The position numbers and the translations under genes are program-made. A DNA stretch of 64,000 nucleotides from an uncultured Burkholderiales bacterium (GTDB taxonomy: Bacteria > Pseudomonadota > Gammaproteobacteria > Burkholderiales > SHXO01): positions 169,427-233,426 of the forward strand of contig CAZFYX010000039.1 in NCBI GenBank assembly GCA_964523885.1, read 5' to 3'. Shown piece by piece: positions 38,215 through 60,931 of this stretch (position 1 is its first letter; each line of letters opens with the position of its first letter). The notes beneath the pieces are model-generated. The model saw only the letters and a program-made list of their open reading frames with translations. It ran no database searches and was not told the DNA's origin.

Positions 38215-39111
38215 ATGACTGCCATTCCCGCCACCTCGATCGACGCCCTGATCGAGCGCTACGACGTGCTGCTGTTCGACGCGTACGGCGTCCTGGTCCA
38301 CGCCGCCGGGGCGATGCCTGGCGCCCGCGCACTGGTCGAGCAGCTGAACCGCAGCGGGAAGACCTATTTCGTCGTCACCAACGATGCCTCCAAGCTGCCG
38401 GTGACCGCCGCCGCGCGCTACGCGAAGTTCGGCGTCGCCGTCCCGCCGGAGCGTATCGTCAGCTCCGGCCAACTGGTGCAGCAGTACTTCGCCACGCACG
38501 GTCTGGACGGGGCGCGCTGCGCGGTGCTGGGCACCCGCGACAGCGTGCGCTACGTCGAGCTCGCCGGCGGGCAGCCGGTCGCGCCCGACGGCGATTTCGA
38601 GGTGCTGGTGGTGGGCGACGAGACCGGCTATCCATTCCTCGAGAGCGTGGATGCCGCCCTGACCACGCTGTTCCATCGCCTCGACGCGGGCCGCCCGGTG
38701 CACCTGCTGGTGCCCAACCCCGACCTGATCTACCCGCGCGGCACCCACAGCTTCGGCATCACGGCAGGAAGTGTCGCGCTGGTGCTGGAGGCGGCGCTCG
38801 AGCGGCGCTTCGGCGACCGGGCGCCGCGCTTCGTGCGGTTGGGCAAGCCGGCACCGCATCTGTACCACGCTGCGGTGTCCCGTGCGGGCGGCGGGCGTGC
38901 CGTGATGGTCGGCGACCAGATCGAGACCGACATCGCCGGAGCCATCGCCGCGGGCATCGACGCGGCGCTCGTCACCACCGGCGTGAGCACCGTTCCCGAC
39001 GACCTGCCCCGCCATCTGCGTCCGACCTGGCAGCTGGCCTCGGTCGCACCGGCCGGTGCCGTAGAAGCGGACGGCGGCCGCGCCGGCGCCCCGGACGAGA
39101 TCGACAAGTAG
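38215..39111 (+). CDS. HAD-IIA family hydrolase (NagD-like)
   Basis: LFDAYGVL, VVTNDAS, LGKPAP and MVGDQIETDI. Confidence 0.92.
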   Translation: MTAIPATSIDALIERYDVLLFDAYGVLVHAAGAMPGARALVEQLNRSGKTYFVVTNDASKLPVTAAARYAKFGVAVPPERIVSSGQLVQQYFATHGLDGARCAVLGTRDSVRYVELAGGQPVAPDGDFEVLVVGDETGYPFLESVDAALTTLFHRLDAGRPVHLLVPNPDLIYPRGTHSFGITAGSVALVLEAALERRFGDRAPRFVRLGKPAPHLYHAAVSRAGGGRAVMVGDQIETDIAGAIAAGIDAALVTTGVSTVPDDLPRHLRPTWQLASVAPAGAVEADGGRAGAPDEIDK

Positions 39112-39112
39112 C

Positions 39113-40285
39113 TCAGCCGCGCGGGACGAGCACCCTGCCGGAGAGCAGCGCAAGCACGCCGCACACGGCGATCACGGCGGCCATCGGCAGCGCGCTCCCG
39201 TCGTAGAGGGCGCCGACCAGGCTGCTCGCGATCCCCGCCACGCCGAACTGCAGCGTGCCGATCAGCGCGGAGGCGGTACCGGCGCGAACGCCGTGCTCGG
39301 CCAGCGCCAGTGCCTGGGAGTTGGGGAAGATCATGCCCAGGCTGGCGACATAGCCGAACAGCGGCAGAAGGATGCCGGCAAATCCGAGTCCGCCGGTGGC
39401 CACGAGGAGCAGCAGCACGACCCCGAGCGCCGCATTGACCGACGCGGCGCGATCCAGCACGGCCTGCGGTCCCATGCGCCGGAGCAATCGCCGGTTCAAC
39501 TGCGAGGCGGCGATGAGGCCGAATGCGTTGAGGCCGAACAGCCAGCCGTAGTGCTGGGCCGGCACGCCGTAGACGTCGATGAAGACCTGCGGCGAGCCGG
39601 AGATATAGGCGAACATGCCTCCCTGCGCCAGCCCGCCCGCGAGCGTGAAGCCGAGGAACCTGCGGTCGCGCAGCAGCAGCAGATAGCCCGGCAGCGCGCG
39701 CGAAAGCGCAACCGCCGCGTGCGGCGCACGGGTCTCCGGCAGCCATGCCGCCGCTGCCAGCAGGCACAGCGCACCGAACAGCGCCAGTGCCCAGAAGATC
39801 GATTGCCAGCCGAGCAGCACCAGCAGGTAGCCGCCGGCCAGCGGCGCGAGGATCGGCGCCACCCCCATCACCAGCATGATCAGGGAGAACATGCGCGCGG
39901 CCTCGTGCGCCTCGAACAGGTCGCGCACCACGGCGCGCGAGATGACGATCCCGGCACAGCAGCCGGTGGCCTGCAGGAAGCGCAGCGCCACCAGCGCATC
40001 CAGTGTCGGCGCGAGCGCGCACAGGGCGGAGGCGGCGACGAACAGGACGATGCCGGCGTACAGCGGTGGCTTGCGCCCATAGCGGTCGGCCAGGGGTCCG
40101 TAGAGCAGCTGCCCCGCAGCCAGGCCGATGAAGAACGCAGCGAGGGTCAGCTGCACCGCGCCGCCCGTCGCGCCGAACTCGCGCGCAAGCGTGGGCAGGC
40201 TCGGCAGGTACATGTCGGTGGTCATGGGCGCGAACGCGGCAAGCGCGCCAAGGACCAGCGTGAGCTGCGGGAGGCTGGGCTTCAA
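39113..40285 (-). CDS. Bcr/CflA family MFS efflux transporter
   Basis: DMYLPSLP, GPLADRYGRKP and RAVVRDLF. Confidence 0.93.
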   Translation of the reverse strand: MKPSLPQLTLVLGALAAFAPMTTDMYLPSLPTLAREFGATGGAVQLTLAAFFIGLAAGQLLYGPLADRYGRKPPLYAGIVLFVAASALCALAPTLDALVALRFLQATGCCAGIVISRAVVRDLFEAHEAARMFSLIMLVMGVAPILAPLAGGYLLVLLGWQSIFWALALFGALCLLAAAAWLPETRAPHAAVALSRALPGYLLLLRDRRFLGFTLAGGLAQGGMFAYISGSPQVFIDVYGVPAQHYGWLFGLNAFGLIAASQLNRRLLRRMGPQAVLDRAASVNAALGVVLLLLVATGGLGFAGILLPLFGYVASLGMIFPNSQALALAEHGVRAGTASALIGTLQFGVAGIASSLVGALYDGSALPMAAVIAVCGVLALLSGRVLVPRG

Positions 40286-40289
40286 CGGC

Positions 40290-41606
40290 TCAGTTCAGCA
40301 GCGCCGCCGGCAGCCAGGTCGCAATCCCCGGCAGCAGCATGACCAGCACCAGCATCGCCAGGCCCATAAGCACGTAGGGCAACACCGCGTGGAAGATCTG
40401 GCCCATGGTGATCTGCTTCGGCGCCACGCCGCGCATCGTGAACAGCAGCATGCCGAACGGCGGCGTGAGCAGGCCCAGCTGCATGCAGATCAGATACATC
40501 ACCCCGAACCACAGCGGATCGAAGCCGAAGTGCTGCACCAGCGGCATGTAGAACGGCAGCGTGATGAGCATCATGCTGACCTGGTCGATGAAGCAGCCCA
40601 GCACCAGCAGGATGCCCATCATGCCGAGCAGCACACCCCAGGGCGGCAGCGCCGCATCCTGCACCAGTGCAACCAGGCCGTTGGTGGCGCCCGAGAAGGA
40701 CAGCACCTGCGAGAAGGTGGTGGCGCCGACGATGATGAACAGGATCACGCCGGAGATCGCCGCGGTGCCCAGAAGGGACTTCATCAGGCTGTCGAAGGTA
40801 AGCGCCCGGTAGGCCACGGCCACGACCAGCGTGGCGAGCGCGCCGAGCGCGGCCGACTCGGTCGGCGTCGCCCAGCCGGCCGACATCGCCATCACCACGG
40901 CGACGAAGATCAGCACCAGCGGCGTGACGTGCACCAGGAGGGGCCGCCAGCGCGCCCAGCCGCGCGCGCGCTCCTGCTCGAACGCAGGCGCGAGTGCCGG
41001 ATCCAGCCGTGCGCGCGTGACGATGTAGGCGACGAACATCAGCGAGAGCAGGATGCCGGGCACCACCCCCGCGATCAGCAGGCCGGCGATGGAGATGCCG
41101 GCGAGGCTGCCCAGCAGCACCGTCAATGCCGAGGGCGGGATGAGCATGTCCACCCCGCCGATGGCCATGATCGGACCCATCGCCATCGACGGGTGGTAGC
41201 CACGCTTGAGCATCTGCGGCAGCAGCAGGCTGCCCAGCAGTGCGGTGGTCGCGACCGTCGATCCGGAGATGGCCGAGAACACCGTGCCGGCCACGATCGC
41301 GATCACCGCGAGCCTTCCCGGCACCTTCCAGATCACGTTGTCGAAGGCGTCAATCGCCCGCATGGCGATGCCGGTGTGGAACAGCACCTCGCCCATCAGC
41401 ACGAAGAACGGGATCGGGGTGAGCGAGAAGTTGGTGATCGAGGCCACGCCGTTGCGCACCACCTGCATCAGCCCGGCCTCACCGCCGAGGAAGAACACCG
41501 CGCCGACCAGGTTGATGGCGAGGAACGCGAAGGCGGCCGGCACCCCGACCAGCAGCAGCACGGTGAGCAGCCCGAACAGCAGGCCGAGGGTCTCCCACCA
41601 CTCCAT
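40290..41606 (-). CDS. dctM: TRAP transporter large permease
   Basis: PIPFFVLMGE, FSAISGSTVA, LIPPS and GLLTPPFG. Confidence 0.93.
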   Translation of the reverse strand: MEWWETLGLLFGLLTVLLLVGVPAAFAFLAINLVGAVFFLGGEAGLMQVVRNGVASITNFSLTPIPFFVLMGEVLFHTGIAMRAIDAFDNVIWKVPGRLAVIAIVAGTVFSAISGSTVATTALLGSLLLPQMLKRGYHPSMAMGPIMAIGGVDMLIPPSALTVLLGSLAGISIAGLLIAGVVPGILLSLMFVAYIVTRARLDPALAPAFEQERARGWARWRPLLVHVTPLVLIFVAVVMAMSAGWATPTESAALGALATLVVAVAYRALTFDSLMKSLLGTAAISGVILFIIVGATTFSQVLSFSGATNGLVALVQDAALPPWGVLLGMMGILLVLGCFIDQVSMMLITLPFYMPLVQHFGFDPLWFGVMYLICMQLGLLTPPFGMLLFTMRGVAPKQITMGQIFHAVLPYVLMGLAMLVLVMLLPGIATWLPAALLN

Positions 41607-41607
41607 C

Positions 41608-42108
41608 TCAGCGGGTCTCTTCCTCGAGCCCCGCGACCACCGGCGCGGCGTGACCGCCCGGCCGCAGCAGCCGGCGCAGGCACTCGACCGCCAGCAGCCC
41701 GAAGCACAGTGGCACCGGCACGAACAGCCACCACTCGGGGAACACCAGGCTCTTGATGACCAGGGCGCCGGACTCGCGGGCGTCGAGAATGACGGCAACG
41801 GCGTACCAGGCGATCACTGCGCTGACGACCAGTCCGAACCCCGCGGCGATCCGATCGATCACCGCCATGCGTGCCGGCGACAGCGTGGCGCCCAGGATGT
41901 CCAGGCGGATGTGCTCGTTGCGGTACATCAGCCAGGGCGCCGCGAGGAAGGTCGCCAGCGGCAGCATGTACTCGGTGATCTCGACGATCCACGGTAGGCT
42001 GTGAGCACCGAGGTTGCGCAGGATGACGTCGTAGCAGACCAGCAGGACGACCAGCCCGAGCAGGATCGCGGCGGCGGCGCCGCAGGCGTTGATGAGGCGG
42101 GGGTACAT
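41608..42108 (-). CDS. dctQ: TRAP transporter small permease
   Basis: Four TM helices, EHIRLD and position between dctP and dctM. Confidence 0.9.
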   Translation of the reverse strand: MYPRLINACGAAAAILLGLVVLLVCYDVILRNLGAHSLPWIVEITEYMLPLATFLAAPWLMYRNEHIRLDILGATLSPARMAVIDRIAAGFGLVVSAVIAWYAVAVILDARESGALVIKSLVFPEWWLFVPVPLCFGLLAVECLRRLLRPGGHAAPVVAGLEEETR

Positions 42109-42115
42109 TCGTATC

Positions 42116-42205
42116 AGGCTCCAGGCTCTAGGCGCTAGACGCCAGAGGCTTTGCTGCAGCGCTGCGCGCAGCGCCCGACATCTGGCGTCTGGAGCCTGGG
42201 GCCTA
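42116..42205. repeat. REP-like palindrome with 7-bp periodic arms (family B, copy 2)
   Basis: aggctccaggctctaggcgctagacgccag ... ctggcgtctggagcctggggccta; shares the loop motif gcgcgcagcg with 1713-1805. Confidence 0.8.
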
Positions 42206-43186
42206 TTTTTTGGCAAGCATCTGCTTGAGCTTCGCCCCATGCACCGGGCTGGCCTTGATCACGCCGTCCCACGCGGTCTCGTAGGCGATCTGCAGGAACA
42301 GCTTCGCCTGCGCGTCGTCTAGCTTGATGACCTCGATGCCGGCGGCGCGCTGGCGCCTGTCCTCTGCCGCGCCGTCGCCCGGATAGCTCGCGTTCAGGCT
42401 CTCGAGCCAGGCGGCCTCCTTCTCCAGGAACTGGCGCTGCTGGGGCGTGAGCTTCTGCCAGCTCCTGGCGTTGAAGATCACCGACAGCTCGATGTTGTAG
42501 AAGCCGGGATCGATCCGGTACTTGGTCTTCTCCTGCCAGCCGAGGTCGAAGATCCCGATCAGCGGCCAGCCGTAGCCGTCCACCACGCCGCGGTCGAGCG
42601 CGGTATACACCTCACCCGGTGCAACCTGCACCACGCTGGCGCCCAGCTTCTGGAAGAAGTCCCGGTAGATCGGCGCGATGCGCAGCTTGAGCCCGGTCAG
42701 GTCGGCGGAGGTGACCTTCTTGTTCGAGTAGATGTGGTACGGGATGCCTTCGCCGGTGCGGGCGAAGATGTACAGGCCCTTCTCGATGAAAATCTTGTTC
42801 AGGTAGTCGATCGTGCCGTTGCGGCGCAGCTCGGCCATGCCCGCGTCGGTGTAGTTGAGCACCAGCCCTTCGGGCACGATGCCGGCCGTGAACGACATGG
42901 TGGTGTTGGCCAGGTCCACCACGCCGTTGCGCAGCGCGTTGGCCAGCTCGAAGGTGGGGATGCTCTTGGGACCGCCCACGTACTGGATCTTCACCAGCCC
43001 CTTGCCTTCGGCGTTCACCTTGTCGATGAACTTCTCGAAGTTCTTCGCGTAGTAGGACGCCTCGGGGAAGGCGTTCGCGGCCTTGAGCGTGACTTCCTGC
43101 GCGCGCGCCAGGCCGGCCGCGGCGAGCAGGAGTGCGACGCCGAACGCGGCGCGGGCAAAGCGACCCCGGTGGAGGGTTGAGAGCAT
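42203..43186 (-). CDS. dctP: TRAP transporter substrate-binding protein
   Basis: Signal peptide, DLTGLKLRIAP and GEVYTALDRGVVDG. Confidence 0.93.
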   Translation of the reverse strand: MLSTLHRGRFARAAFGVALLLAAAGLARAQEVTLKAANAFPEASYYAKNFEKFIDKVNAEGKGLVKIQYVGGPKSIPTFELANALRNGVVDLANTTMSFTAGIVPEGLVLNYTDAGMAELRRNGTIDYLNKIFIEKGLYIFARTGEGIPYHIYSNKKVTSADLTGLKLRIAPIYRDFFQKLGASVVQVAPGEVYTALDRGVVDGYGWPLIGIFDLGWQEKTKYRIDPGFYNIELSVIFNARSWQKLTPQQRQFLEKEAAWLESLNASYPGDGAAEDRRQRAAGIEVIKLDDAQAKLFLQIAYETAWDGVIKASPVHGAKLKQMLAKK

Positions 43187-43209
43187 CGGTATTCCTCGTT
43201 GTTGTATTG

Positions 43210-43308
43210 ACCCATCCCCACCCTGTCCCGCCCCTTGAAGGGGAGGGAATGCGTCACACGCCGCGCAGCTCCTCCCCCTTCAAGGGGGAGGCTGGGAGGG
43301 GGATGGGT
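43210..43308. repeat. composite family A-like palindrome
   Basis: Outer inverted repeat acccatcccc/ggggatgggt with inner hairpins ccccttgaagggg and cccccttcaaggggg. Confidence 0.8.
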
Positions 43309-43333
43309 TCAGGACGATCGCCAGCCCGCGATT

Positions 43334-44614
43334 CTATTGCATCGCCATGAACGCAGCCCAGGCGCGGAACTTGTTGCGCATCAGGCGCTCGTCGGTGCCG
43401 CCCACGTCGGCCCGCTCACCGTCCTCGCCGGCGCGGCGGCCCCGCTGCAGGCTCACCCACTCGTTGCCCGGCGCCGCGAGCGCCTGCTGCATGGTCTCGA
43501 ACACGTGCACGTCGTCGTGCGCAACCACCGACATCGGGGAGAAGACGAGCCGGTTGTACATCGCGGTGCGCCGCTGCAGCGTCGCCGGCGCGCCCTTCGG
43601 CCGCAGCGCCCAGATCTCGATGAGCGTGCGATCCGCCGCCAGCGGACGGATCACGCGCAGCGTCTGCGGAGAGCTCTTCACCGCGATGCTGGGGAACAGG
43701 ATGCTGTTCTGCGGTGCGAAGGCCAGCACTTCGCGCGCGCGCTCCAGCCCGTGCGCGCGCGCCAGCGACTGCTCGTAGTCGCCGAGCGCACCGTAGGCGC
43801 TGTGGATGCTCGCCTGCGTCCCGAGGATGCTGTGGCCATTTGCGAACACGCGCCCACCCATGCGCTCGAAGAAGTCGTAGCCGGAGCCGAACGGCAGCAT
43901 CTGCTCCATGCTCATCGGCTTGACCGCGCCCGCCGGCTGCCGGTCCCAGACCGCCTGCGCCGCCTCGGCAGCCGACTGGTGCGTGGTCACCGCGTGCATG
44001 GTGTCGTTGATGTTCTCCAGGTACATCTTCCAGTTGCAGCGCATGACGCTGCGCAGGCAGCCACCGGCGATCTCCAGCTCGCCCTCGGGCGAGCGGTCGG
44101 CGAGGTTGTCCAGTGCATGCAGCACGGGCCCGAAGTACGCGTCGAACGCGGGGCCCTCGCCCAGGCGCACGAAGACGAAGCCGCGGTAGACCGTGCTGGT
44201 CACGCGCGCCAGTCCACCGGCCGCTTCGCATTCCTGCAGGCGGGTGCCGTCGTAGCCGCCGCGCAGCGGGATCGCACGGATCGAGCCGTCGAGGTTGTAG
44301 GCCCAGGCATGGTACGGACAGCGGAAGAACCGGCCGACCCGGCTGGTGGGCGCGGTGACCAGCTTCGCCCCCTTGTGCGCGCACCGGTTCATCAGCACGC
44401 CTACGCCGCCGTCGTCCCGGCGGACCATCAGCAACGGCCGGCCCGCCACTTCGGTGGCGTAGCAATCGCCGGGGCTCGGCACCTGGCTGGCGTGACCGAG
44501 GTACTGCCAGGTGCGGGCGAACAGGCGCTGCTGCTCCAGCGCGAAGATGGCAGGGCTCAGGTAGAGATCGCGGTGGACGCGGTCATCCCCGACCAGCGCG
44601 GCAACGTCGCTCAC
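43334..44614 (-). CDS. Rieske ring-hydroxylating oxygenase alpha subunit (IadD-like, by recall)
   Basis: Rieske ligands NRCAHKG...RCPYHAW; mononuclear Fe motif NWK..EN..DTMH....H; C-terminal HDD. Confidence 0.92.
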   Translation of the reverse strand: MSDVAALVGDDRVHRDLYLSPAIFALEQQRLFARTWQYLGHASQVPSPGDCYATEVAGRPLLMVRRDDGGVGVLMNRCAHKGAKLVTAPTSRVGRFFRCPYHAWAYNLDGSIRAIPLRGGYDGTRLQECEAAGGLARVTSTVYRGFVFVRLGEGPAFDAYFGPVLHALDNLADRSPEGELEIAGGCLRSVMRCNWKMYLENINDTMHAVTTHQSAAEAAQAVWDRQPAGAVKPMSMEQMLPFGSGYDFFERMGGRVFANGHSILGTQASIHSAYGALGDYEQSLARAHGLERAREVLAFAPQNSILFPSIAVKSSPQTLRVIRPLAADRTLIEIWALRPKGAPATLQRRTAMYNRLVFSPMSVVAHDDVHVFETMQQALAAPGNEWVSLQRGRRAGEDGERADVGGTDERLMRNKFRAWAAFMAMQ

Positions 44615-45120
44615 CCGCGCCCCGGCTCCCGCAGCGCGGCCTCGAACACGCATGCCGCGGCCCCCTGGCTGGCGCAGGCGAGCTCGCGCACGCTCGTCGC
44701 CGATCCGGCGACGACTTCGGCCAGTGCCTGGAGCATCCCCCGGATCGGACCACACACCGGCTCGCTCGACACACCGAACCCCATGGCGAACGGACTGTTT
44801 TCCACCTGCAGCTGCAAGGCCGTGGTCGACAGCTGCAGCTGCCAGCGGCCCCAGCCCAGGTCCGCGGCGGCATCCTGCATCGCATCGAGCAGGCGCACGC
44901 GATCCCCGCCGAGGTGGGCGAGATACGCCGTCACGCTGTCGCGGCCGTGCTGCGCCACCGAGCTGGCGAAGGCATCCTGCGCATGCCTGCGCAGCAACGG
45001 ATCCATGCGGCGCATGGCGCCCATCAGCACGTCGGCGCGCAACATGAGGTAACGCCGGGCCTCGTCGCGGATCTCTCCGCGCGCGCGGTCGAAGGCGAGG
45101 CGATCGGCGAGCCGCGTCAC
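44611..45120 (-). CDS. stand-alone V4R (vinyl-4-reductase) domain protein
   Basis: LGWG.W...ENSPFA...PVC..RGML..LA.V.......E..C...G...C.F pattern; overlaps both neighbours by 4 nt. Confidence 0.8.
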   Translation of the reverse strand: MTRLADRLAFDRARGEIRDEARRYLMLRADVLMGAMRRMDPLLRRHAQDAFASSVAQHGRDSVTAYLAHLGGDRVRLLDAMQDAAADLGWGRWQLQLSTTALQLQVENSPFAMGFGVSSEPVCGPIRGMLQALAEVVAGSATSVRELACASQGAAACVFEAALREPGRG

Positions 45121-46697
45121 ACCGTGCCCTGCGTACGGGGCAGCGGCAACGCCAGTGCCTGCATTGCCGCCGTCAACGCGCAGCCGTCCTCGTCCTGCAG
45201 CGCCGCCTCGCGCAGTCGGCGCAACGCCGGCGCGGCATCGGACGAGCCGCTCAGGCGATCGGCAGCGGCCATCAAGGCGTCGAAGCTGCGCCGTCCGCGC
45301 TCCCAGGTCTCGCTGTAACCCTTGAGCACGCGCGCCGACTCGGCCACCTCGCACGCGAGCGCATAGTCGATGCTGCCGATCCGCTCGATCCGCGCCAGCC
45401 AGGCGTCGATGTCGCGCATCTCGTCCGCATAGCGCAGCGTGCGGCGGCGGTAGCCGCGCAGCTGGCCCAGCGTCCACAGCAGCACGAACCCGGGAAGCGA
45501 CGTGGTGCGCAGGAAGCGCCCCCTGGCGAACAGGCCTCCGACCAGGTTGCGCGCCCAGGTGGTGGCGAGCAGCCAGCGGCCGAGCCCCGCCGGCAGGGTG
45601 TCGGCGAGCTCCCGCACGCGCGGGTGCAGGAAGTCGGTCACGTTGACGATCTGCCCCGGCTCCGCGCGGACCTCGCTGCGGAAGCGTTCGAAGCGGGTGC
45701 CGCGGGTCTTGAGGTCGGCGACCCGCAGCGTGTCCTCGTAAGCCATGCGCAATGCCAGGTAACGCGCGGTCACGACGGTCAACCGCCACTGCGCCCCGGC
45801 CATGCCCGCGCGCGCATCCATGGTTCGCACCGCATCCATGCGCCGCAGGTAGTCTGCCGCGTACTCGACGTCCATGTGATCGACCAGCCGACGCAGGCCC
45901 TCGATCAGGAGCGCCCGCGCCGGCTCGGGAAAGTCTGCATGGACGCGCTTCAGGAGTGCGGCGATGGCGGGATCGGCGGCCGCGACCGGAAGGGTCGGGG
46001 CCGCAGCGGGAGACTGCAGCGGGTCGCCGTCTTGCTGCGCGCGCTCGAACGCCCCGGCGAACGCCTTCAGGCTCGCCTCGACCCCGACGCCGCCGCGCCG
46101 GATCGCCGCCTCGAAGTCGGCACGCCGGAACGGCAGCACGCCCGCGCCGGCCAGGGCACCGAACAGCGCGGCCGAGATCACGCTGCCCGCGTCCTCTGCG
46201 AGGGCCGCCATGTCGAAGGCGATGTAGCGCTGCGCCACCTCCCGGGCAGCGGCATGCACGCGCTCTGGATCGGCGATGCCGCTGCCCATGGCCGATTTCT
46301 CGAGGATCGCGTACGAGCGATGCGACGATGCGATCAGGGTCGTTCGATCGGGCGTTACCAACCCGCGCTGCATCGCCCGGCCTGCTTCCATCAGTTCGGC
46401 AGCGATCACGACGTCCACATCACCGGAGGTCGGCATGAGCGCCAACACCGGCACGCGACCGTCCGCTGGCGATGGGAACAGCTCGGCGTAGTAGATGGTG
46501 GCGCCGGTGCGCTGGGCCACGCCGGGGACCGAGGTCGTCTGCACCAGCCAGCCGGCGTGCTCGGCGAGGTCGACGAGCCAGTCGGCGAGCACGCCGCCGC
46601 CCTGTCCGCCGAGGGCCAGGATGGCGATGGAGATGCGGCGCCTGGCGTCCTCGGCGTCGACGGGAGAGCGCTGCGGTGAGAGTGACGTGGCAGCCAT
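45117..46697 (-). CDS. iorB: indolepyruvate oxidoreductase beta-family protein (long form with DUF6537-like C-terminus)
   Basis: ILALGGQGGGVL, TSVPGVAQRTGATIYY and MAYED..RVADLK. Confidence 0.9.
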   Translation of the reverse strand: MAATSLSPQRSPVDAEDARRRISIAILALGGQGGGVLADWLVDLAEHAGWLVQTTSVPGVAQRTGATIYYAELFPSPADGRVPVLALMPTSGDVDVVIAAELMEAGRAMQRGLVTPDRTTLIASSHRSYAILEKSAMGSGIADPERVHAAAREVAQRYIAFDMAALAEDAGSVISAALFGALAGAGVLPFRRADFEAAIRRGGVGVEASLKAFAGAFERAQQDGDPLQSPAAAPTLPVAAADPAIAALLKRVHADFPEPARALLIEGLRRLVDHMDVEYAADYLRRMDAVRTMDARAGMAGAQWRLTVVTARYLALRMAYEDTLRVADLKTRGTRFERFRSEVRAEPGQIVNVTDFLHPRVRELADTLPAGLGRWLLATTWARNLVGGLFARGRFLRTTSLPGFVLLWTLGQLRGYRRRTLRYADEMRDIDAWLARIERIGSIDYALACEVAESARVLKGYSETWERGRRSFDALMAAADRLSGSSDAAPALRRLREAALQDEDGCALTAAMQALALPLPRTQGTV

Positions 46698-46705
46698 GCC
46701 GGCTT

Positions 46706-46806
46706 ACCCCTCGCCCTGCCCCTCTCCCGCGAGGGGAGAGTCGAACGATGCCGCGGTGTCGAGCAACTCTCCCTCTCCCTTGACGGGAGAGGGCCGGGGT
46801 GAGGGT
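46706..46806. repeat. composite family A palindrome between iorA and iorB
   Basis: cccctctcccgcgaggggagag and ccctctcccttgacgggagagggccggggtgagggt; outer ends are complementary. Confidence 0.85.
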
Positions 46807-46848
46807 GACGCCAGCGTCATGCGATCCCGCCCGCGCGATGGGTTCGTG

Positions 46849-48987
46849 TCAGAACGCATGCCGGCTCAACCGCCGCGCGGTGCGCGCCTGCAGCGCGCCG
46901 ATGATCCGCCCGCGCACCTTCTGCCAGAACCGCTCCCACGCACCCGGGTTGTAGACGACCTCGGCGCGCATGAACGAAGGGCACAGCGCGGCCGCATGTG
47001 CCGCCTCGCCGCACAGGCCGCAGCCCACGCAGCTGTCCTCGATGTGCGTCACCGGATCGAGCCGCAGCGGATCCGGATTGGGCTTGATGGTGAGCGAGGG
47101 GCAGCCCGACATGCGGATGCAGGCGTGATCGCCGGTGCAGGTATCGGGGTCGACCACGAAGCGCTCGCGCACCACCCGCTCGCCGGCCTTGATCGCCTGC
47201 CGCATCTGCGGCTTCACGCGGCGCTGCTTGTTCAGCATGCACTCCGACTGCGCCACGATCACCTTGTGGCCCGGCGCCTTGCCGCTCACCGCATCCTTCA
47301 GCGCCCGGCGCATCTGCGCGAGATCGTAGGTGCGCGTGATCGTGGCGACGGATTGCACGCCCACGCCGCGGACCGCCTGCTCGATGGGATGGTTGGTCGC
47401 CCGCGTCCGGTTCTCGGCCTTCGACGAGAGGAGGTCCTGCCCGCCCGTTGCCGCGGAGTACCCGTTGTCGACGATCAGCGTGACGCCTTCGCTGCGGTTG
47501 AACACCGAGTTGCCGATGCCGCTGGTCAGGCCGTTGTGCCAGAAGCCGCCGTCGCCCATCACCGCGATGGCCTTGCGCCCTGCGGGCACGTTGAAGGCCG
47601 AAGCGGCCGCGCCGCCCAACCCGTAACCCATCGTGGTGTTGCCGATGTTGAACGGCGGCAGGATGGAGAACAGGTGGCAGCCGATGTCCGCGCTGACGTG
47701 CATCGGCCCGACCTCCTTCTCGACCAGCTTCATCGCAGTGAAGATGGGCCGCTCCGGACAGCCGGTGCAGAACCCGGCCGGGCGCTGCGGCACCACGCCC
47801 GTCAGCGCCTGCACGGCCGGGTGCGAGGTGACCGGCACGCCGGCCTCGCCGGCAAGATGCCGCGCGTGCTCGCGCAGGAACTCGCGCACGCCGCGCACCA
47901 GCACGTCGCCGGTGTACTCGCCCGCCATGGGCAGCACGTCCTTTCCGGACAGCCTCGTCTGCACGTCCGCCTTGCGCAGGATGGTGTGGAGGGCCTGCTC
48001 GATGTAGTCGGGCTGCCCTTCCTCGATCAGCAGCACCGCGCGCTTGCCGGCGCAGAAGCGCACGACTTCGGCGTCCACCAGCGGATAGGTCACGTTGAGC
48101 ACGTACAGCGGAATGCGCGCGTTGCCGAAGGCATCCGCGAGGCCCAGCCGCTCGAGCGCGCGCAGCACGCCGTTGTACATGCCGCCCTGCAGGACGATGC
48201 CCAGCTCCTGCTCGGCACCGTCGAAGAACTCGTTGAGCCGGCGGTCCCGGATGAACTGCACGGCCGCGGGCCAACGCTTCTCGACCTTCTCCTTCTCGTG
48301 CTGGAACGAGGCCGGCGGCAGCACGATGCGTGCGGTGTCGCGGCGCGGGGTCTCCAGCGCCTGCTGCAGCGTGAACGCCGGCCGGCGGTTGTCCTTGGCG
48401 ACGAAGCGCCCGTGCACGTGACAGGCGCGGATGCGCAGCTCCAGCATCACCGGGGTGCTGCTCGCCTCGGACAGCTCGTAGCCCTGCTCCACCATCGCCA
48501 CGATGCTCTCGAGGTTGGGGCGCGGATCGAGCAGCCAGATCTGCGACTTCATCGCGAAGGCGTGGCTGCGCTCCTGCATGATGCTGGAGCCCTCGCCATA
48601 GTCCTCGCCGATGACGATCATCGCGCCGCCGGTCACGCCGCCCGAGGCGAGGTTGGCGAGCGCATCGGAAGCGACGTTGGTACCCACCGTCGACTTCCAG
48701 GTGGCGGCCCCGCGGATCGGATAGTTCACCGACGCGGCCAGCGTCGCGGCCGCCGTCGCCTCGGAGGCGGACGACTCGAAGTGCACGCCGAGCTCGCCCA
48801 GGATGTCCTGCGCGTCGGCGAGCACGTCCATCAGGTGCGAGATCGGCGCGCCCTGGTAGCCCGCGACATAGCCCACTCCGGCCTGCAGCAGCGCCTTGGT
48901 GACCGCGAGGATGCCCTCGCCATGGAACACCTCGCCCTGCTTCAGGCGCAGCTTCTCGACTTCCTTCGCGAAGGAACGTTCAGCCAT
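46849..48987 (-). CDS. iorA: indolepyruvate ferredoxin oxidoreductase alpha-family subunit
   Basis: GYQGAPIS, FCTGCPERP, DIGCH, GDGGFWHNG and C-terminal CTGDHAC..CP...CVGCGLC Fe-S motifs. Confidence 0.93.
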   Translation of the reverse strand: MAERSFAKEVEKLRLKQGEVFHGEGILAVTKALLQAGVGYVAGYQGAPISHLMDVLADAQDILGELGVHFESSASEATAAATLAASVNYPIRGAATWKSTVGTNVASDALANLASGGVTGGAMIVIGEDYGEGSSIMQERSHAFAMKSQIWLLDPRPNLESIVAMVEQGYELSEASSTPVMLELRIRACHVHGRFVAKDNRRPAFTLQQALETPRRDTARIVLPPASFQHEKEKVEKRWPAAVQFIRDRRLNEFFDGAEQELGIVLQGGMYNGVLRALERLGLADAFGNARIPLYVLNVTYPLVDAEVVRFCAGKRAVLLIEEGQPDYIEQALHTILRKADVQTRLSGKDVLPMAGEYTGDVLVRGVREFLREHARHLAGEAGVPVTSHPAVQALTGVVPQRPAGFCTGCPERPIFTAMKLVEKEVGPMHVSADIGCHLFSILPPFNIGNTTMGYGLGGAAASAFNVPAGRKAIAVMGDGGFWHNGLTSGIGNSVFNRSEGVTLIVDNGYSAATGGQDLLSSKAENRTRATNHPIEQAVRGVGVQSVATITRTYDLAQMRRALKDAVSGKAPGHKVIVAQSECMLNKQRRVKPQMRQAIKAGERVVRERFVVDPDTCTGDHACIRMSGCPSLTIKPNPDPLRLDPVTHIEDSCVGCGLCGEAAHAAALCPSFMRAEVVYNPGAWERFWQKVRGRIIGALQARTARRLSRHAF

Positions 48988-49010
48988 GGTCGGTTGTCGT
49001 GGCAGAGCCG

Positions 49011-49096
49011 GACCCATCCCCATCCCGCCCCTCCCCTTGCAGGGGCGGGAGTCCTTCCTTTCCCTTCACGGGGGGAGAAAGGAGGGGGATCGGTTC
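49011..49096. repeat. composite family A-like palindrome between cyclase and iorA
   Basis: gacccatccccatcccgcccctccccttgcaggggcggga...ggagggggatcggttc; shares its start with 43210. Confidence 0.72.
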
Positions 49097-49108
49097 CTCA
49101 CTCACAGG

Positions 49109-49888
<780 letters not shown>

Positions 49889-49942
49889 GGTGTTCTGCTT
49901 CGGGAAAAGCGCAATCGTAGCGCGGGTCCGCTGCCGGCGTGG

Positions 49943-50902
<960 letters not shown>

Positions 50903-51027
50903 CGGACGGCTTCTCCAAGCGAAGGTGTGATGGTAGCGCACGCACGGATCGCGCCCGCTTGCCCTCATCCGCCGCTTCGCGCATCATCGCCCCAGCGCAC
51001 GCCCCGCCCTTCCGCCCCGCCACCCGA

Positions 51028-51633
51028 ATGTTCTTCGAACCCGTCAGCCTGCTGCTGGTGCTGAGCAATGTCGCCGTGTTCTACCTGGAGCAGCAGGCTC
51101 CAGAGGCCTACGCCCTGGCCTGGGGATTGTGGCCGGTGGAGACCCCGAACTTCCACCTGCCGCAGCTCATCACCTACGGCTTCCTGCACGCGAGCGGCAT
51201 CCACCTGACCGTCAACATGTTCGCCATGTTGATGTTCGGCGCCGAAGTGGAGCACCGGGTGGGCTCCCTGCGCTTCCTGCTGTATTGCCTGGCCTGCCTG
51301 CTCTCGGCAGCGCTGCTCCAGCTCGGCGTGGCGATCATCCTGGGCACGCTGACGCGGCCGACGATGGGCGCCTCGGGCATCGTGTTCGGCGTGCTGCTGG
51401 CCTATGCGATGCTGTTCCCGCGCCAGAAGCTCACCCCGATCATCATGCCGGTCCCGATTCCGGCCTGGCTGTTCGTCGGGCTCTACGGGCTGCTCGAGCT
51501 GGTGATGGGGTTGCTGGAGACCCAGGACGGCATCGCGCACTTCGCCCACCTTGGAGGCATGATGGGCGGATGGTTCCTGATGCAGTACTGGCGCGACAAG
51601 CTGCCGCCGACCGTCGCCGAGGGCCGCGGTTGA
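51028..51633 (+). CDS. rhomboid family intramembrane serine protease
   Basis: TYGFLHAS..HL..NM, catalytic GASG and AHFAHLGG. Confidence 0.93.
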   Translation: MFFEPVSLLLVLSNVAVFYLEQQAPEAYALAWGLWPVETPNFHLPQLITYGFLHASGIHLTVNMFAMLMFGAEVEHRVGSLRFLLYCLACLLSAALLQLGVAIILGTLTRPTMGASGIVFGVLLAYAMLFPRQKLTPIIMPVPIPAWLFVGLYGLLELVMGLLETQDGIAHFAHLGGMMGGWFLMQYWRDKLPPTVAEGRG

Positions 51634-51661
51634 GCGCCATGACACCGGGTCTCCTGGCTCC

Positions 51662-53962
51662 ATGCGCCCCTGGCTCGCCGCGCTGCTGATCGCCCTCGTC
51701 CTCGGCGGCGCGGCAGGGGCGTGGCTGCTGCCCCGCGGCACCCCACCGGCTTCGGCGCCGGCCGCGAGTGCGGCCTATGCCGGCTCGCAGGCATGCGCCG
51801 GGTGCCACGCGAAACAGCACGCCGCCTGGCAGGGCTCGCAACACCAGCTCGCCATGCAGCACGCCACGGACGCCACGGTGCTGGGGGACTTCGCCGACGC
51901 CCACTTCACCTACGCGGGCATCACCTCCACCTTCTTCAGGCGCGACGGCCGGTTCTTCGTGCGCACCGATGGGCCCGACGGCAGGCTCGCCGAGTTCGAG
52001 GTCAAGTACGTCTTCGGCCTGGCACCGCTGCAGCAGTACCTCGTCGAGTTCCCCGACGGCCGTATCCAGGCCCTGTCGATCGCCTGGGACGCACGTCCGA
52101 AGGCGCAGGGCGGGCAGCGCTGGTACCACCTCTACCCGAAGGAGCGGATCACGCACACCGACCCGCTGCACTGGACCAGGGGGATGCAGAACTGGAACTA
52201 CATGTGTGCGGAGTGCCATTCGACCGCAGTGCGCAGGAACTACGACCCCGGCAGCGACACGTTCAAGACCGGCTGGTCGGAAATCAGCGTCGGCTGCGAG
52301 GCCTGCCATGGCCCCGGCTCGGCGCACATCGCCTGGGCGAAGGACAAGCGATCCGACCCGGCCCGCGGCCTGGTCGTCCGCTTCGACGAGCGCGCCGGCG
52401 TGCACTGGGCGATCCAGCCCGCGAGCGGGAACGCTGCGCGCAGCACGCCGCGCACCAGCAGCAAGGAGATCGACACCTGCGCGCTGTGCCACGCGCGCCG
52501 CGGGCAGATCTGGGAGCCGCATGTTCCCGGCAAGCCGATCGCCGACACGCACCAGCCGGCCCTGCTCACCGAGGGCCTGTACGAAGCCGACGGACAGATG
52601 CGCGACGAGGTGTACAACTACGGCTCGTTCCTGCAAAGCCGCATGCATGCCGCCGGCGTGACCTGCAGCGACTGCCATGACCCGCACAGCGGCAAGCTGC
52701 GCGTTCCGGGCGACGGGGTGTGCCTGCAATGCCACGCGGCCACGAAGTATCCGCTGCCCGCGCACACCGGCCATCCGGACACGCCGCAGGCGCAGGCCTG
52801 CCCCGCCTGTCACATGCCCACGCGCACCTACATGGGCATCGACCCGCGCCATGATCACAGCTTCCGCGTGCCGCGCCCCGACCTGTCGGTGAAGTACGGC
52901 ACGCCGAACGCCTGCAACGACTGCCATCGCGACAAGTCCGCGGCGTGGGCTGCGGCTGCGGTCGAGAAGTGGTTCGGCCCGCAGCGCAAGGGCCTGCAGG
53001 CGTGGACGCCCGCGTTCCACGCAGCCCGCACCGGCTCGACCGAGTCGAAGAACCTCCTGTTCGGCACCGCGCAGGACGCCGGCCAGCCGGCGATCGGAAG
53101 GGCGACCGCGTACGCCGAGCTGGCGGCCTATCTCACGCCCAGCCTCGTATCCGAAATGCAGAAGGGCCTCCACGACCCGAGTGAGCTGGTGCGCATCGGG
53201 GCGCTGCGCGGGCTCGCCTCCGTGCCGCCCGACCAACGCTGGGGCATCGCGAACCATCTCCTCTCCGACCCGGTGCGCGCGGTGCGCCTGGAGGCGGTGT
53301 CGTTCCTGCTGCCGGTGCCCGCCGACACGCTCTCACCCGAGCAGGGGGCCGCGCTGGACCACGGCATCGAGGAGTACGTGGCGGTGCAGAAGCTCAACGC
53401 CGACCGGCCCGAATCGCACCTCAACCTGGGCCTGCTGCACGCGGCCCGCAACGCGCCCGACCAAGCGGAAGCCGAGTACCGCGCCGCGCTGAAGCTCGAT
53501 CCGGGCTTCGTCCGCGCCTACGTGAACCTTGCCGACCTCTACCGCAGCACTGGCCGCGACGCGGACGGCGAGAAGCTCCTGCGCGATGCGCTGCGGGCCG
53601 CACCCCGCGAGCCCGCGCTGCACCATGCGCTCGGCCTGCTGCTCGCGCGCGAGCGCCGCTATCCAGAGGCCGTCGCGGAACTGGCGATCGCGGCACGGAC
53701 AGACCCTGCCGACCCGCGCTATCCGTATGTCTATGCCGTGGCGCTCGACTCGACCGGACGCGGCAGCGAAGCGCTCAAGGTCCTCGAGGCCAATCACCAG
53801 CGCCACCCTGCCGACCGCGACACGCTCCTGGCGCTGGCCACCATGAACGCACGCGCCGGTGCACGCGAGGTCGCACTGACATATGCCCGCAAGCTGCAGG
53901 CCCTGACGCCGGACGAGCCGGACGTCCAGCAGCTGGTGCAGCAGCTCCAGGCGGGGAACTGA
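51662..53962 (+). CDS. multiheme (8 CXXCH) cytochrome c with HEAT and TPR repeats
   Basis: CAGCH, CAECH, CEACH, CALCH, CSDCH, CLQCH, CPACH, CNDCH; then D..ELVR..AL (HEAT) and TPR repeats. Confidence 0.9.
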   Translation: MRPWLAALLIALVLGGAAGAWLLPRGTPPASAPAASAAYAGSQACAGCHAKQHAAWQGSQHQLAMQHATDATVLGDFADAHFTYAGITSTFFRRDGRFFVRTDGPDGRLAEFEVKYVFGLAPLQQYLVEFPDGRIQALSIAWDARPKAQGGQRWYHLYPKERITHTDPLHWTRGMQNWNYMCAECHSTAVRRNYDPGSDTFKTGWSEISVGCEACHGPGSAHIAWAKDKRSDPARGLVVRFDERAGVHWAIQPASGNAARSTPRTSSKEIDTCALCHARRGQIWEPHVPGKPIADTHQPALLTEGLYEADGQMRDEVYNYGSFLQSRMHAAGVTCSDCHDPHSGKLRVPGDGVCLQCHAATKYPLPAHTGHPDTPQAQACPACHMPTRTYMGIDPRHDHSFRVPRPDLSVKYGTPNACNDCHRDKSAAWAAAAVEKWFGPQRKGLQAWTPAFHAARTGSTESKNLLFGTAQDAGQPAIGRATAYAELAAYLTPSLVSEMQKGLHDPSELVRIGALRGLASVPPDQRWGIANHLLSDPVRAVRLEAVSFLLPVPADTLSPEQGAALDHGIEEYVAVQKLNADRPESHLNLGLLHAARNAPDQAEAEYRAALKLDPGFVRAYVNLADLYRSTGRDADGEKLLRDALRAAPREPALHHALGLLLARERRYPEAVAELAIAARTDPADPRYPYVYAVALDSTGRGSEALKVLEANHQRHPADRDTLLALATMNARAGAREVALTYARKLQALTPDEPDVQQLVQQLQAGN

Positions 53963-55014: not shown

Positions 55015-55137
55015 GCGGCCGTCGGAACTTGTCACAATAAATCAAGTCCGAACCACCGCGGCCATTCAAACTTTCGCGGCTGCTCAACCATGCCGATTGG
55101 CACATCCGTTCCAAATACCGTTATCTTGGAGAAGAAC

Positions 55138-56568
55138 ATGGGATTTACCCGTCGTCGCGCCATTCAGGCAGGCTTGGGCGCCGCCCTCTATCCGCTCTGG
55201 CATCCGGCCGTCCAGGCGTTCGAGATGTCGTCGCTCGACCCCATGGAGGGTCTGGAGGAGTTCTGGCTGGCCACCGATGCCTATATCTTCGGCTATCCGC
55301 TGGTGACGATGGAGATGACGCGCCGGGTCTTGACCAACGTCGAGAAGCCCGAAGGAACGCGCGCGCCGATGGGGCAGATCATCAGGATGCGCCAGTATCC
55401 GGATGCTTCGTTCAAGGACGTGACGGCGCCGAACGCGGACACCCTCTACACCACGGCGTTCATCGACGTCGGTGACGAGCCCTGGGTGTTGAGCATTCCG
55501 GACCTCAAGGGCCGGTATGCGCTGTTCCCGATGCTCGACGGCTGGACCACCGTCTTCCAGGTCCCCGGCAAGCGCACGACGGGCACCGCCGCCCAGACCT
55601 ACGCGATCACCGGCCCGGGCTGGAAAGGCACGCTGCCGGCCGGGGTCAAGGAGTACAAGTCGACCACCAGCATCGTGTGGCTGCTCGGCCGCATCTACTG
55701 CACGGGCACGCCGGAGGACTATGCCGCCGTCCACAAGCTGCAGGACGAATGCAAGCTGGTGCCGCTGAGCGCATACGGCAAGGCGTACACCCCGCCCCCC
55801 GGCAAGGTGGACCCGGCCATCGACATGAAGACCGCGGTGCGCGACCAGGTGAACCGCATGGATGCGGTGGAGTACTTCACCCTGCTCGCGCAACTCATGA
55901 AGCGCAATCCCGCCTACGCCGCCGATGCAGCCGAGCTCAAGCGCTATCAGCGCATCGGCCTGGCGGCTGGGCAGGACTTCGACGCGGCCAGGCTGAAGGC
56001 CGATTTCGTCAAGCGCATCCCGCAAGTCGCGTTCGACCGGATCATGCTGCAGTTCAAGGTCGGCAAGCCGATCAAGAACATCAACGGCTGGGTATTCGAC
56101 ACGCAGACGGGAATCTACGGCACCGACTACCTCAACCGGGCCTTCGTCACGGCGATCGGCCTGGGTGCGAACCGCGTGCAGGACGCCGTATACCCGACCT
56201 CGCTCAAGGATGCGGACGGCCACGAGTACAACGGCGCGCACAAGTACGTGATGCACTTCCCCAAGGGCCAGCTGCCCCCGGCAGACGGCTTCTGGTCGGT
56301 GACCATGTACAACGCCCAGTACTTCTTCGTGAACAACCCGATCAACCGCTACTCGATCAGCCCGCGCCAGGACCTGAAGAAGAACCCCGACGGCTCCGTC
56401 GATCTCTATATCCAGCACGAGTCGCCCGGTGAGGACAAGGAATCGAACTGGCTCCCGGCGCCGCCCGACAAGTTCATCCTCATGATGCGGATGTACTGGC
56501 CGAAGGAAAAGACACCATCGATCATCAACGGGACGTGGGCGCCTCCGCCGGCGAAGCGTGTGAGCTGA
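55138..56568 (+). CDS. DUF1254/DUF1214 protein with putative Tat signal (alternative start 55090)
   Basis: TRRRAIQ leader; AYIFGYPLV, APNADTLY, FWSVTMY and NWLPAP...MRMYWP. Confidence 0.9.
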   Translation: MGFTRRRAIQAGLGAALYPLWHPAVQAFEMSSLDPMEGLEEFWLATDAYIFGYPLVTMEMTRRVLTNVEKPEGTRAPMGQIIRMRQYPDASFKDVTAPNADTLYTTAFIDVGDEPWVLSIPDLKGRYALFPMLDGWTTVFQVPGKRTTGTAAQTYAITGPGWKGTLPAGVKEYKSTTSIVWLLGRIYCTGTPEDYAAVHKLQDECKLVPLSAYGKAYTPPPGKVDPAIDMKTAVRDQVNRMDAVEYFTLLAQLMKRNPAYAADAAELKRYQRIGLAAGQDFDAARLKADFVKRIPQVAFDRIMLQFKVGKPIKNINGWVFDTQTGIYGTDYLNRAFVTAIGLGANRVQDAVYPTSLKDADGHEYNGAHKYVMHFPKGQLPPADGFWSVTMYNAQYFFVNNPINRYSISPRQDLKKNPDGSVDLYIQHESPGEDKESNWLPAPPDKFILMMRMYWPKEKTPSIINGTWAPPPAKRVS

Positions 56569-56821
56569 GGTCCGGAGGGACCGCAGCGGGTTCGGAGGAA
56601 GGCCGCGAACCCGTCGTCCCGGCCCTTCCCGCCAGGAACCCTGCGCCGGCGTGCTGGACGCCGGCGCGGCGCGTGCGCACAATCCGCAGGTGCTACTGCC
56701 TGCAGGGCACCAGTGCCCACGCGTCCCGTCCGGGACGCTGATACGGCAGGAGGGTAGCGCGACAACCCGGCCGGCATCCAGGCCAGGGCAACCCGGCGCG
56801 CGGCGCGAAAGCGAGTCCTTG

Positions 56822-59035: not shown

Positions 59036-59043
59036 GCATCCGC

Positions 59044-59655
59044 ATGCCCGTGCCCACCGTTTACGTGCTCGACGACGATGTCGACGTCCTGAAGGCGACC
59101 GAGCGCCTGCTCGTCTCCGCGGGGATACAGGTCGCCGCGTTCCAGTCGGCGCACGCTTTCCTCGCGGCCTGCGACGAGATGCCGCAGGGTTGCCTGGTCG
59201 TGGACCTGGCCATGCCGGGGATGAGCGGGATCGACGTGCAGCGCGCCCTGGCCGAGCGGGCCAACGCGCTCCCGGTGATCTTCCTCACCGGCCGTGGGGA
59301 TATCCGCACGTGCGCGGAGGTCATGAAGAACGGTGCGGTGGACTTCCTCACCAAGCCCGTGGACGAGGCGGAGCTGCTCGCGGCTGTCAGCAGCGCGCTG
59401 GCCCGTGACGAAGTGCAGTACCGCGAGCGTGCTGCGCGGGCGCGCAACGCGCGCGCCCTCGAGACGCTGACCGAGCGCGAACGGGAAGTGCTCCATCACG
59501 TGGTCTCCGGCCGGCTGAACAAGCAGATCGCCGCGGATCTGGGCACGACCGAGCGGACCATCAAGTTTCACCGCGGGAACCTGATGCGCAAGCTCGGCAT
59601 CCGCACCGTGGCCGAGCTGGTGCGGATCGCGGGGCACGGGGGCGCCGGCCGCTGA
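59044..59655 (+). CDS. FixJ/LuxR family response regulator
   Basis: VLDDD, VDLAMPG, FLTG.GD and LTEREREV..GRLNKQIA. Confidence 0.95.
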   Translation: MPVPTVYVLDDDVDVLKATERLLVSAGIQVAAFQSAHAFLAACDEMPQGCLVVDLAMPGMSGIDVQRALAERANALPVIFLTGRGDIRTCAEVMKNGAVDFLTKPVDEAELLAAVSSALARDEVQYRERAARARNARALETLTEREREVLHHVVSGRLNKQIAADLGTTERTIKFHRGNLMRKLGIRTVAELVRIAGHGGAGR

Positions 59656-60817: not shown

Positions 60818-60931
60818 GCGTCCTGCACGACGATCGCCTATTGAATTGTGGCAAGCGGTAGAATCCACCGGGCAGCATGGTGGCGTGGCTGCAGCGATTT
60901 GGCCGCTTTTTCCCCTTTGGAGACAGAAACA

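Follow-up and report, generated by a model that had tools for sequence, protein, structure and literature searches.

The 64,000-nucleotide stretch of an uncultured Burkholderiales bacterium analysed here (the window, to which all positions without a contig name refer) contains at 43334-44614, on the minus strand, a gene for a Rieske oxygenase alpha subunit, here called alphaW, which is a paralogue in the family of the auxin oxygenase subunit IadD and has no adjacent beta-subunit gene. The favoured reading, to which we give an even chance, is that alphaW is a functional, extra IadD-family alpha in a split iad (auxin-degradation) locus, that its clade lost the adjacent beta gene long ago, and that it uses a distant IadE-like beta together with a non-dedicated reductase. 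An earlier note on this DNA had singled out the gene as an alpha subunit lacking a beta subunit and an electron-transfer partner, and most of this oddity is explained by an extra IadD-family subunit in a split auxin-degradation locus with a candidate beta in the same genome. Loci, genomes and contigs are denoted by L, G and C numbers, the analysed genome being G000.

According to Pfam, alphaW carries a Rieske domain (PF00355, E 1.9e-16) and a Ring_hydroxyl_A domain (PF00848, E 3.8e-12). The enclosing open reading frame (ORF) spans 43334-44755 on the minus strand; starting from the GTG, the gene encodes 426 amino acids (aa), and an alternative in-frame ATG at 44653 gives 439 aa, as many as the database copy P0078 has. 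In the PDB, the two best matches are both IadD (9o71_A and 7yls_B, with E-values of 2.5e-153 and 2.1e-152, respectively), the former being from IadDE of Variovorax paradoxus CL014 (Jiang 2025, PMC12633357), followed by phenylpropionate dioxygenase with 1.5e-39, more than 100 orders of magnitude weaker. As stated in the earlier note, both metal sites are intact: the [2Fe-2S] ligands C78/H80/C99/H102 align to C85/H87/C106/H109 of IadD, and the mononuclear iron ligands H207/H212/D368 to H216/H221/D377, which makes 7 of 7 ligands identical. Every one of them is also invariant in seven orthologue clusters of 78-83% identity. Among the seven non-ligand residues of the published pocket for indole-3-acetic acid (IAA), 5 are identical in alphaW (N210, F251, K322, R329, and Y362 in IadD numbering; ligand and pocket residues as listed in Ma 2023, PMC10374108), and the two differences are isoleucine for L211 and glutamine for H311. 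This glutamine, the Q302 signature, is common to all 14 aligned rows of the paralogue group described below. Because the pocket residues are mostly kept, an IAA-like aromatic carboxylate is the likely substrate of alphaW. The reading frame is intact, and the GC content at third codon positions (GC3) is 0.90, similar to the adjoining genes. Judged from its sequence, by family membership and ligands, the gene is shown to encode a real, intact IadD-family catalytic subunit. As for the Rieske lineages that consist of alpha only (phthalate, carnitine, and stachydrine types), alphaW does not belong to them, matching their structures only distantly (6y8j with E 3e-18, 3vca with 2.7e-15, and 1ww9 with 1.7e-05).

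The closest solved relative supports the premise of the earlier note that in this group an alpha normally has a beta subunit and a reductase as partners: IadD and IadE form an alpha3beta3 enzyme, and the flavin mononucleotide (FMN) reductase IadC was needed in vitro (Ma 2023, PMC10374108). Neither partner adjoins alphaW, again in line with that note. The beta-subunit family PF00866 has no match in the window, and no reductase domains were detected in the 26 window ORFs scanned with Pfam. A hidden beta gene among the small ORFs of the 39-51 kb region was also considered and rejected, the extra ORFs that pass the codon-composition filter being all antisense to known genes.

A beta gene is, however, present elsewhere in the genome. 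The search with alphaW gives a 57% identical copy at C39:242412-243683, 28 kb from alphaW, and a 40% identical copy on C109. The former matches IadD with E 3.5e-215, and the beta adjoining it (C39:241936-242337) matches IadE with E 8.1e-60. In the entire 5.06-Mb genome PF00866 is found at two places only, C109 and C39:241936-242337, each beside an alpha copy. Past the C39 alpha-beta pair follow a CoA ligase, a thiolase-like gene, and an OB-fold/SDR fusion, which match iadF, iadG, and iadH/J as named in PMC12633357 and PMC12852158 (V. boronicumulans). The window, in turn, contains iadA and iadB (IorA and IorB), and iorB/iadB, along with iotA/iadA, are named as exclusive markers of iad-like operons (Conway 2022, PMC9613470). 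Because iadI and iadA/B are located in the window, and IadDE and the homologues of iadF/G/H/J in the C39 region, the window contains half of an iad locus, the second half being in the C39 region, 28 kb away. The side-chain removal genes and the amidase iadI are likewise divided, with iadI in the window and the CoA ligase, thiolase, and OB/SDR genes in the second locus. In the same-genus genome G272, IorA, IorB, alpha, beta, CoA ligase, thiolase, OB/SDR, and cyclase genes stand in one row, and the split is therefore particular to the analysed genome. Neither half-locus is adjoined by an iadC reductase or by an iadR MarR regulator.

Beta status was assessed in two samples. Of 600 candidate stretches from species-representative genomes, 592 were confirmed in the scan, and the best 80 loci were kept, of which the top 21 (L009-L029) were examined, the remaining 59 having at most 40% identity and being mostly partial. 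In a sample of 401 genomes from the order, an alpha of the IadD family is present in 14, and wider regions were taken for 6 of these. An alpha was counted as beta-linked if tblastn gave a match within 600 nt downstream on the same strand. According to this measure, 34 of the 45 alpha hits have a beta, 1 is located at a contig end, and 10 lack a beta; these 10 represent 8 distinct genes (L129 duplicates L128, and the two copies in L125 are identical). The phylogeny was computed three times: a quick IQ-TREE run with 44 rows (dropping the duplicate L129_6805), a quick tree with 58 rows, and a careful tree with the same 58 rows, for which L129_6805, L125_4210, and the truncated L017 were dropped and 16 database proteins without genomic context were added. 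All three agree that a paralogue group of 30 rows (support 100/100) is sister to the IadD-orthologue groups.

Within this group, alphaW belongs to a 14-row clade (ultrafast bootstrap, UFBoot, 99; SH-like approximate likelihood ratio test, SH-aLRT, 95) that consists of the window gene, the seven database orthologue clusters with 78-83% identity, and six loci of other genera. The adjacent beta is absent in all 7 clade rows with known context, the other 7 rows having no context, and the nearest outgroups (L014, L026, L095, L009, L027, and the second pair of G197) keep it. Because the beta-less state is clade-wide and these outgroups retain the gene, the loss is old and inherited, not recent in this genome. 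The suggestion of the earlier note that the partners were lost thus holds for the beta gene, while a recent loss, which according to that note would show in orthologous loci that keep a beta, does not fit: related loci keep one, but the nearest clade does not. One further beta loss is seen in G295, in a sister subclade. In that genome a perfect 3520-bp tandem repeat (L125:1-8000) holds two identical sister-subclade alpha genes, and it may be either real or an assembly effect.

The IadE-like beta co-occurs with the clade alpha in all 7 genomes that have one, i.e., this genome, a Caldimonas metagenome-assembled genome (MAG), a Lautropia MAG, G376, G401, G402, and G403. In the Caldimonas and Lautropia MAGs it is located within the same locus as the clade alpha, and the betas of G401, G402, and G403 are 60-69% identical to that of the analysed genome. 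Positions that are at least 85% conserved in 31 beta-linked alphas and yet differ in the 12 Rieske-bearing beta-less rows number only 8, with mostly conservative changes (two Rieske-less rows, three outgroups, and L017 being left out of this comparison). In E. coli, neither iadD nor iadE alone led to IAA degradation, and both together did (PMC12852158). Because the beta co-occurs, canonical IadD is inactive alone, and the substitutions are few and conservative, use of the resident beta in trans by alphaW is favoured. According to the earlier note, partners could be encoded in trans. As a possibility this is supported for the beta, which does exist elsewhere, 28 kb away beside the paralogous alpha. 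A dedicated reductase gene adjoins none of the three alpha genes of the genome.

As for the electron donor, Fer2 and NAD_binding_1 domains coincide at four places of the genome (C76, C82, C39 at 19.7-20.7 kb, and C111). The C76 gene is a stand-alone BenC-like gene, and those of C39 and C111 belong to longer frames. The reductase of C82, which is of the phthalate dioxygenase reductase (PDR) type, was rejected as an equivalent of IadC, being PaaE in a same-strand run of ORFs whose sizes fit a paa operon. Across the 21 related loci, no reductase domains were found in 87 ORFs beyond the recognised iad genes, which were selected by a codon-composition filter that may miss genes. In both E. coli and a Variovorax deletion strain iadDE worked without iadC, which only speeds the reaction (Conway 2022, PMC9613470). 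Because iadDE alone suffice and iadC merely accelerates, a non-dedicated donor is the simplest reading.

Taken together, the favoured reading would work as follows. The TRAP (tripartite ATP-independent periplasmic) transporter encoded downstream of alphaW would import an aromatic acid, and alphaW would assemble on the IadE-like beta encoded 28 kb away beside the IadD orthologue and bind an IAA-like aromatic carboxylate. Two electrons would reach it via its own Rieske cluster from a non-dedicated reductase encoded in trans. Later steps, which lead from isatin to isatinate and perhaps further to an anthraniloyl product, would fall to the isatin hydrolase and IorAB (IadI and IadA/B).

Several observations weigh against this reading. 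Co-occurrence with IadDE is equally expected if alphaW merely serves the same pathway. The betas linked to alphas of its own paralogue group are only about 50% identical to the IadE-like beta of this genome, so compatibility of the two subunits is not guaranteed. A shared regulator of the two half-loci was not found in the genome, where the best MarR matches are 32-36% identical and located on other contigs. Two clade members, L129:6790-8070 (G376, 426 aa) and L016:15001-16269 (Lautropia MAG, 422 aa), are intact ORFs in which the Rieske Cys/His loops are deleted and PF00355 has no match, which may indicate relaxed constraint in part of the clade. Both keep all iron-site and pocket residues, have long branches, and are located near a DctP orthologue, within 5-10 kb of a full IadDE pair. 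Finally, G295 (98% complete, 400 contigs) contains the sister-subclade alpha, yet a PF00866 beta is found nowhere in it, and alpha-only function in the IadD-paralogue group is therefore conceivable. Beta-free trimers can work, as in the carnitine oxygenase subunit (6y8j) and 3vca.

An alternative, which we regard as unlikely, is that alphaW acts alone as a homotrimer and that its clade has become independent of beta, like several other Rieske oxygenases. It would agree with the age and clade-wide extent of the beta-less state, with the ligands kept in orthologues of 78-83% identity, and with the position of the G295 alpha inside a catabolic cluster of a genome without a PF00866 match, as well as with the order V4R-alpha-DctP, apparently kept in orthologues to judge from equal contig sizes. 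The G295 assembly is fragmented, however, and every clade genome still has an IadE-like beta. Moreover, canonical IadD is inactive in E. coli without IadE, and the few clade-specific substitutions are conservative and do not point to remodelling of the surface.

The gene directly upstream of alphaW, missed by the earlier note, encodes a stand-alone V4R protein of 169 aa (44611-45120, minus strand; PF02830, E 1.2e-12), IorB being one gene further. Both its ends overlap their neighbours by 4 nt (IorB stop/V4R and V4R/GTG start of alphaW). The protein consists of one small, complete domain and has homologues in 75 clusters of the protein collection; in an alignment of 47 sequences, its residues C123, E146, C149, and C157 do not vary. 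The family profile matches the sensor domains of MopR (E 7.1e-06), PoxR, and CapR with aligned C-E-C-C columns, which we take to be a zinc site. The AlphaFold2 model has a predicted local distance difference test (pLDDT) score of 94.3, and in Foldseek it matches DmpR and the ten best PoxR/MopR chains with query TM-scores (TMq) of 0.77-0.79. The translationally coupled V4R protein might be a functional partner of alphaW, i.e., a small aromatic-ligand-binding protein that stabilises alphaW, or delivers or gates its substrate, replacing beta or adding to it. We consider this quite doubtful. Apart from the overlaps and the resemblance of fold and putative zinc-site motif to the phenol-sensing domains of MopR, PoxR, and DmpR, it would be consistent with the recurrence of the V4R-alpha adjacency in the Caldimonas MAG locus L013 and in L141, a 1.1-kb metagenome contig that carries IorB (80%), V4R (65%), and the alpha N-terminus (75%). 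V4R, alpha, and DctP clusters also appear to share contigs in several orthologues, as inferred from equal contig sizes. In L019, however, the beta-less alpha directly follows IorB and the locus has no V4R match. The protein is present in 6 of the 401 genomes of the order, and in the other five its homologues have different contexts, for example adjoining CoA ligases or at a distance of 5.6 kb from an alpha-beta pair. When metagenomes were scanned with the V4R protein, only 2 loci were obtained.

An extension of beta sharing, which is speculative and in our view improbable, is that the beta-less paralogues serve as alternative catalytic subunits in the resident IadD/IadE enzyme, forming mixed heterohexamers in which Rieske-less copies, with an intact iron site, could be fed only by the cluster of a neighbouring IadD, and the V4R protein would bind the aromatic ligand and hand it to the extra subunit, or gate that subunit. 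If true, the substrate range of the auxin oxygenase would be widened in a modular fashion.

It is very unlikely that alphaW is a redundant duplicate heading to loss and without a function of its own. The full IadDE pair in the same genome and the relatives in G376 and the Lautropia MAG, with their deleted Rieske loops and long branches, are what such a history might leave. The intact frame of alphaW, its GC3 of 0.90 like that of the adjoining genes, its tight coupling into the operon, the retention of all ligands and of the pocket residues (5 of 7 identical), and the normal branch lengths of the eight rows of close orthologues, however, speak against it.

The least probable explanation, which we hardly credit, is the suggestion of the earlier note that IorAB takes the place of a reductase, supplying the Rieske oxygenase with low-potential electrons that come from 2-oxoacid oxidation. 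It draws on the ferredoxin-like Cys motifs of IorA, the presence of the 2-oxoacid isatinate in the pathway, the lack of an IadC-type reductase in the 87 ORFs of the 21 loci and beside the three alpha genes, and 12 loci in which alpha has IorB or IorAB upstream on the same strand. IorA and IorB, however, are the iad hallmarks iadA and iadB, which coexist with iadC in Variovorax (PMC12852158), so that their being neighbours of alphaW is no particular argument for electron coupling. IorAB is equally often found beside beta-containing pairs, upstream of which it lies in 11 loci, in addition to its position before the beta-less alpha of L019. Furthermore, anthranilate formation was restored by the iadC-K2 region, which lacks iadA/B (Jiang 2025, PMC12633357), and iadDE alone works in E. 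coli (PMC9613470). Isatin hydrolase beside IorAB hints at a role of iadA/B in isatinate handling, and IorAB may oxidise the 2-oxoacid isatinate by analogy with phenylglyoxylate oxidoreductase. We know of no precedent for direct electron transfer from the IorAB enzyme class to a Rieske oxygenase.

IorB is located upstream of alpha, mostly abutting and with no iadC between them, in L130 (G272), L126, L128, L132, L010, L012, L013, L015, L018, L022, and L028. Variovorax has iadC between IorB and alpha; many Burkholderiales iad clusters are without iadC.

Downstream of alphaW, the earlier note correctly placed dctP as the next gene after a palindrome. The spacer (43187-43333, 147 bp) contains an inverted repeat with 39-nt arms at 43210-43248 and 43270-43308 that are 77% complementary, and the predicted RNA hairpin has -79.9 kcal/mol. 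The element of about 40 nt has 20 further blastn matches on 14 contigs of the genome, often paired at the same spacing; the copies are usually inverted pairs about 20 nt apart, scattered through the genome. The palindrome is thus an inverted pair of a dispersed element resembling repetitive extragenic palindromic (REP) sequences. A decayed beta gene was considered and rejected, the spacer of 147 bp being too short and the repeat being dispersed.

DctP, the TRAP solute-binding protein (42203-43186, minus strand; PF03480), is the first gene downstream of alphaW. It is closest to Polaromonas Bpro_4736 (PDB 4mnc_A, E 4.4e-99; 51% identity and TMq 0.83 by Foldseek). As a lead only, the 4mnc entry may contain benzoylformate, an arylglyoxylate like isatinate. 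DctP orthologues of 69-70% identity are found near beta-less clade members in G376 and the Lautropia MAG, and in L013 DctM directly precedes V4R-alpha. DctP is followed on the same strand by the small membrane subunit DctQ (41608-42240; PF04290, E 1.6e-24), whose ORF as listed overlaps dctP by 38 nt and may in truth start further downstream, and by the large membrane subunit DctM (40290-41798; PF06808, E 5.1e-78, matching from residue 75), whose ORF as listed overlaps dctQ by 191 nt and probably starts further downstream. A Bcr/CflA-type transporter of the major facilitator superfamily (39113-40285, minus strand; PF07690; TIGR00710, E 4.9e-103) lies 4 nt past dctM on the same strand, and its membership in the operon is uncertain.

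Upstream of the V4R gene and also on the minus strand, IorB/IadB (45117-46697; PF01558 and PF20169) belongs to the indolepyruvate-oxidoreductase beta family with DUF6537 (NF006179, E 8.7e-205). It is preceded by IorA/IadA (46849-49023; PF02775), the alpha subunit of a thiamine pyrophosphate (TPP)-dependent 2-oxoacid:ferredoxin oxidoreductase, which matches TIGR03336 with E 2.2e-82, under the cut-off of that model, and has C-terminal ferredoxin-like Cys clusters with Fe-S motifs at 629/635/641 and 665/668/671/681. The next gene (49109-49888, minus strand; cyclase family, PF04199, E 3.9e-40) encodes an IadI-like isatin hydrolase; it corresponds to iadI because it is a close relative of the solved isatin hydrolases (5nna with E 2.7e-113 and 5nmp with E 1.5e-108). 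A gene for a DUF808 membrane protein (49943-50968) ends 54 nt upstream of it on the same strand and may be the first gene of the operon. The scan of 39000-51700 for sigma-70 promoters and terminators yielded nothing above shuffled controls.

Logan unitigs from two studies span the IorB/V4R/alpha junctions, and none of the listed pieces spans 43267-43279, inside the repeat, which is a caveat for the assembly at that point. One 2670-bp contig of the collection appears to hold both alpha and DctP, as inferred solely from equal contig sizes.

Further away, the window encodes a protein of 766 aa in which TPR repeats are combined with signatures of multihaem cytochromes c (51662-53962) and, at 55090-63240, two DUF1254/DUF1214 proteins flanking a histidine kinase with PAS domain, a response regulator of the LuxR type, and a DUF3313 protein. 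Outside the window, a coding-like ORF of 460 aa (L007:10418-11800, i.e., G000:C39:243844-245226) is divergent from the IadD orthologue; located upstream of the latter, it was considered as a sigma-54 partner binding the V4R protein and rejected, having no Pfam match at E 1e-5. The third alpha/beta pair (G000:C109:15324-17286, i.e., L008:7325-9287), with an alpha 40% identical to alphaW and no adjoining reductase, stands after ABC transporter genes of the branched-chain type and before a 134-aa ORF without an NCBIfam match and a Lon protease.

With iad loci, Variovorax and relatives rid the root zone of auxin and re-establish root growth, and the locus is now engineered into other bacteria (Jiang 2025, PMC12633357). 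To this the present analysis adds a beta-less IadD-like lineage whose genes often have a TRAP transporter and a sensor-like V4R protein as neighbours. New are the conservation of this clade without beta and its link with the two neighbours, in so far as no description of such a clade was found in the iad literature consulted, none of the searches being aimed at beta-less or orphan alphas. The lineage raises the questions of whether one beta serves two alphas, whether alpha acts alone, and what the substrate of the second oxygenase is.

Among known systems, the closest is IadD/IadE-IadC of Variovorax paradoxus CL014 (9O71; 7YLS and 8H2T), which shares with alphaW the domain pair, all metal ligands, 5 of 7 pocket residues including K322, R329, and Y362, and the iad-type context with homologues of iadA/B and iadI. 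In contrast to it, alphaW has no adjacent IadE and no IadC, carries Q for H311 and I for L211, stands between a V4R gene and a TRAP transporter, and is 57% identical to the IadD orthologue of its own genome. The beta-linked members of the paralogue group (L009, L014, L027, and the second G197 pair) share with alphaW 61-63% identity, membership in the 100/100 group, and the Q302 signature, but, unlike alphaW, they have a beta directly downstream. The alpha-beta pair of L009 is the only oxygenase of its iad-like cluster within the 16 kb examined. As for 6y8j, 3vca, and CarAa (1ww9, the terminal oxygenase of carbazole dioxygenase), these are Rieske and mononuclear-iron oxygenases that act without beta and match alphaW only distantly. 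Finally, the sensor domains of MopR, PoxR, and DmpR resemble the V4R protein of the window in fold and in the aligned Cys-Glu-Cys-Cys spacing; the latter, however, is a protein of 169 aa without an AAA+ or DNA-binding part, encoded inside a catabolic operon.

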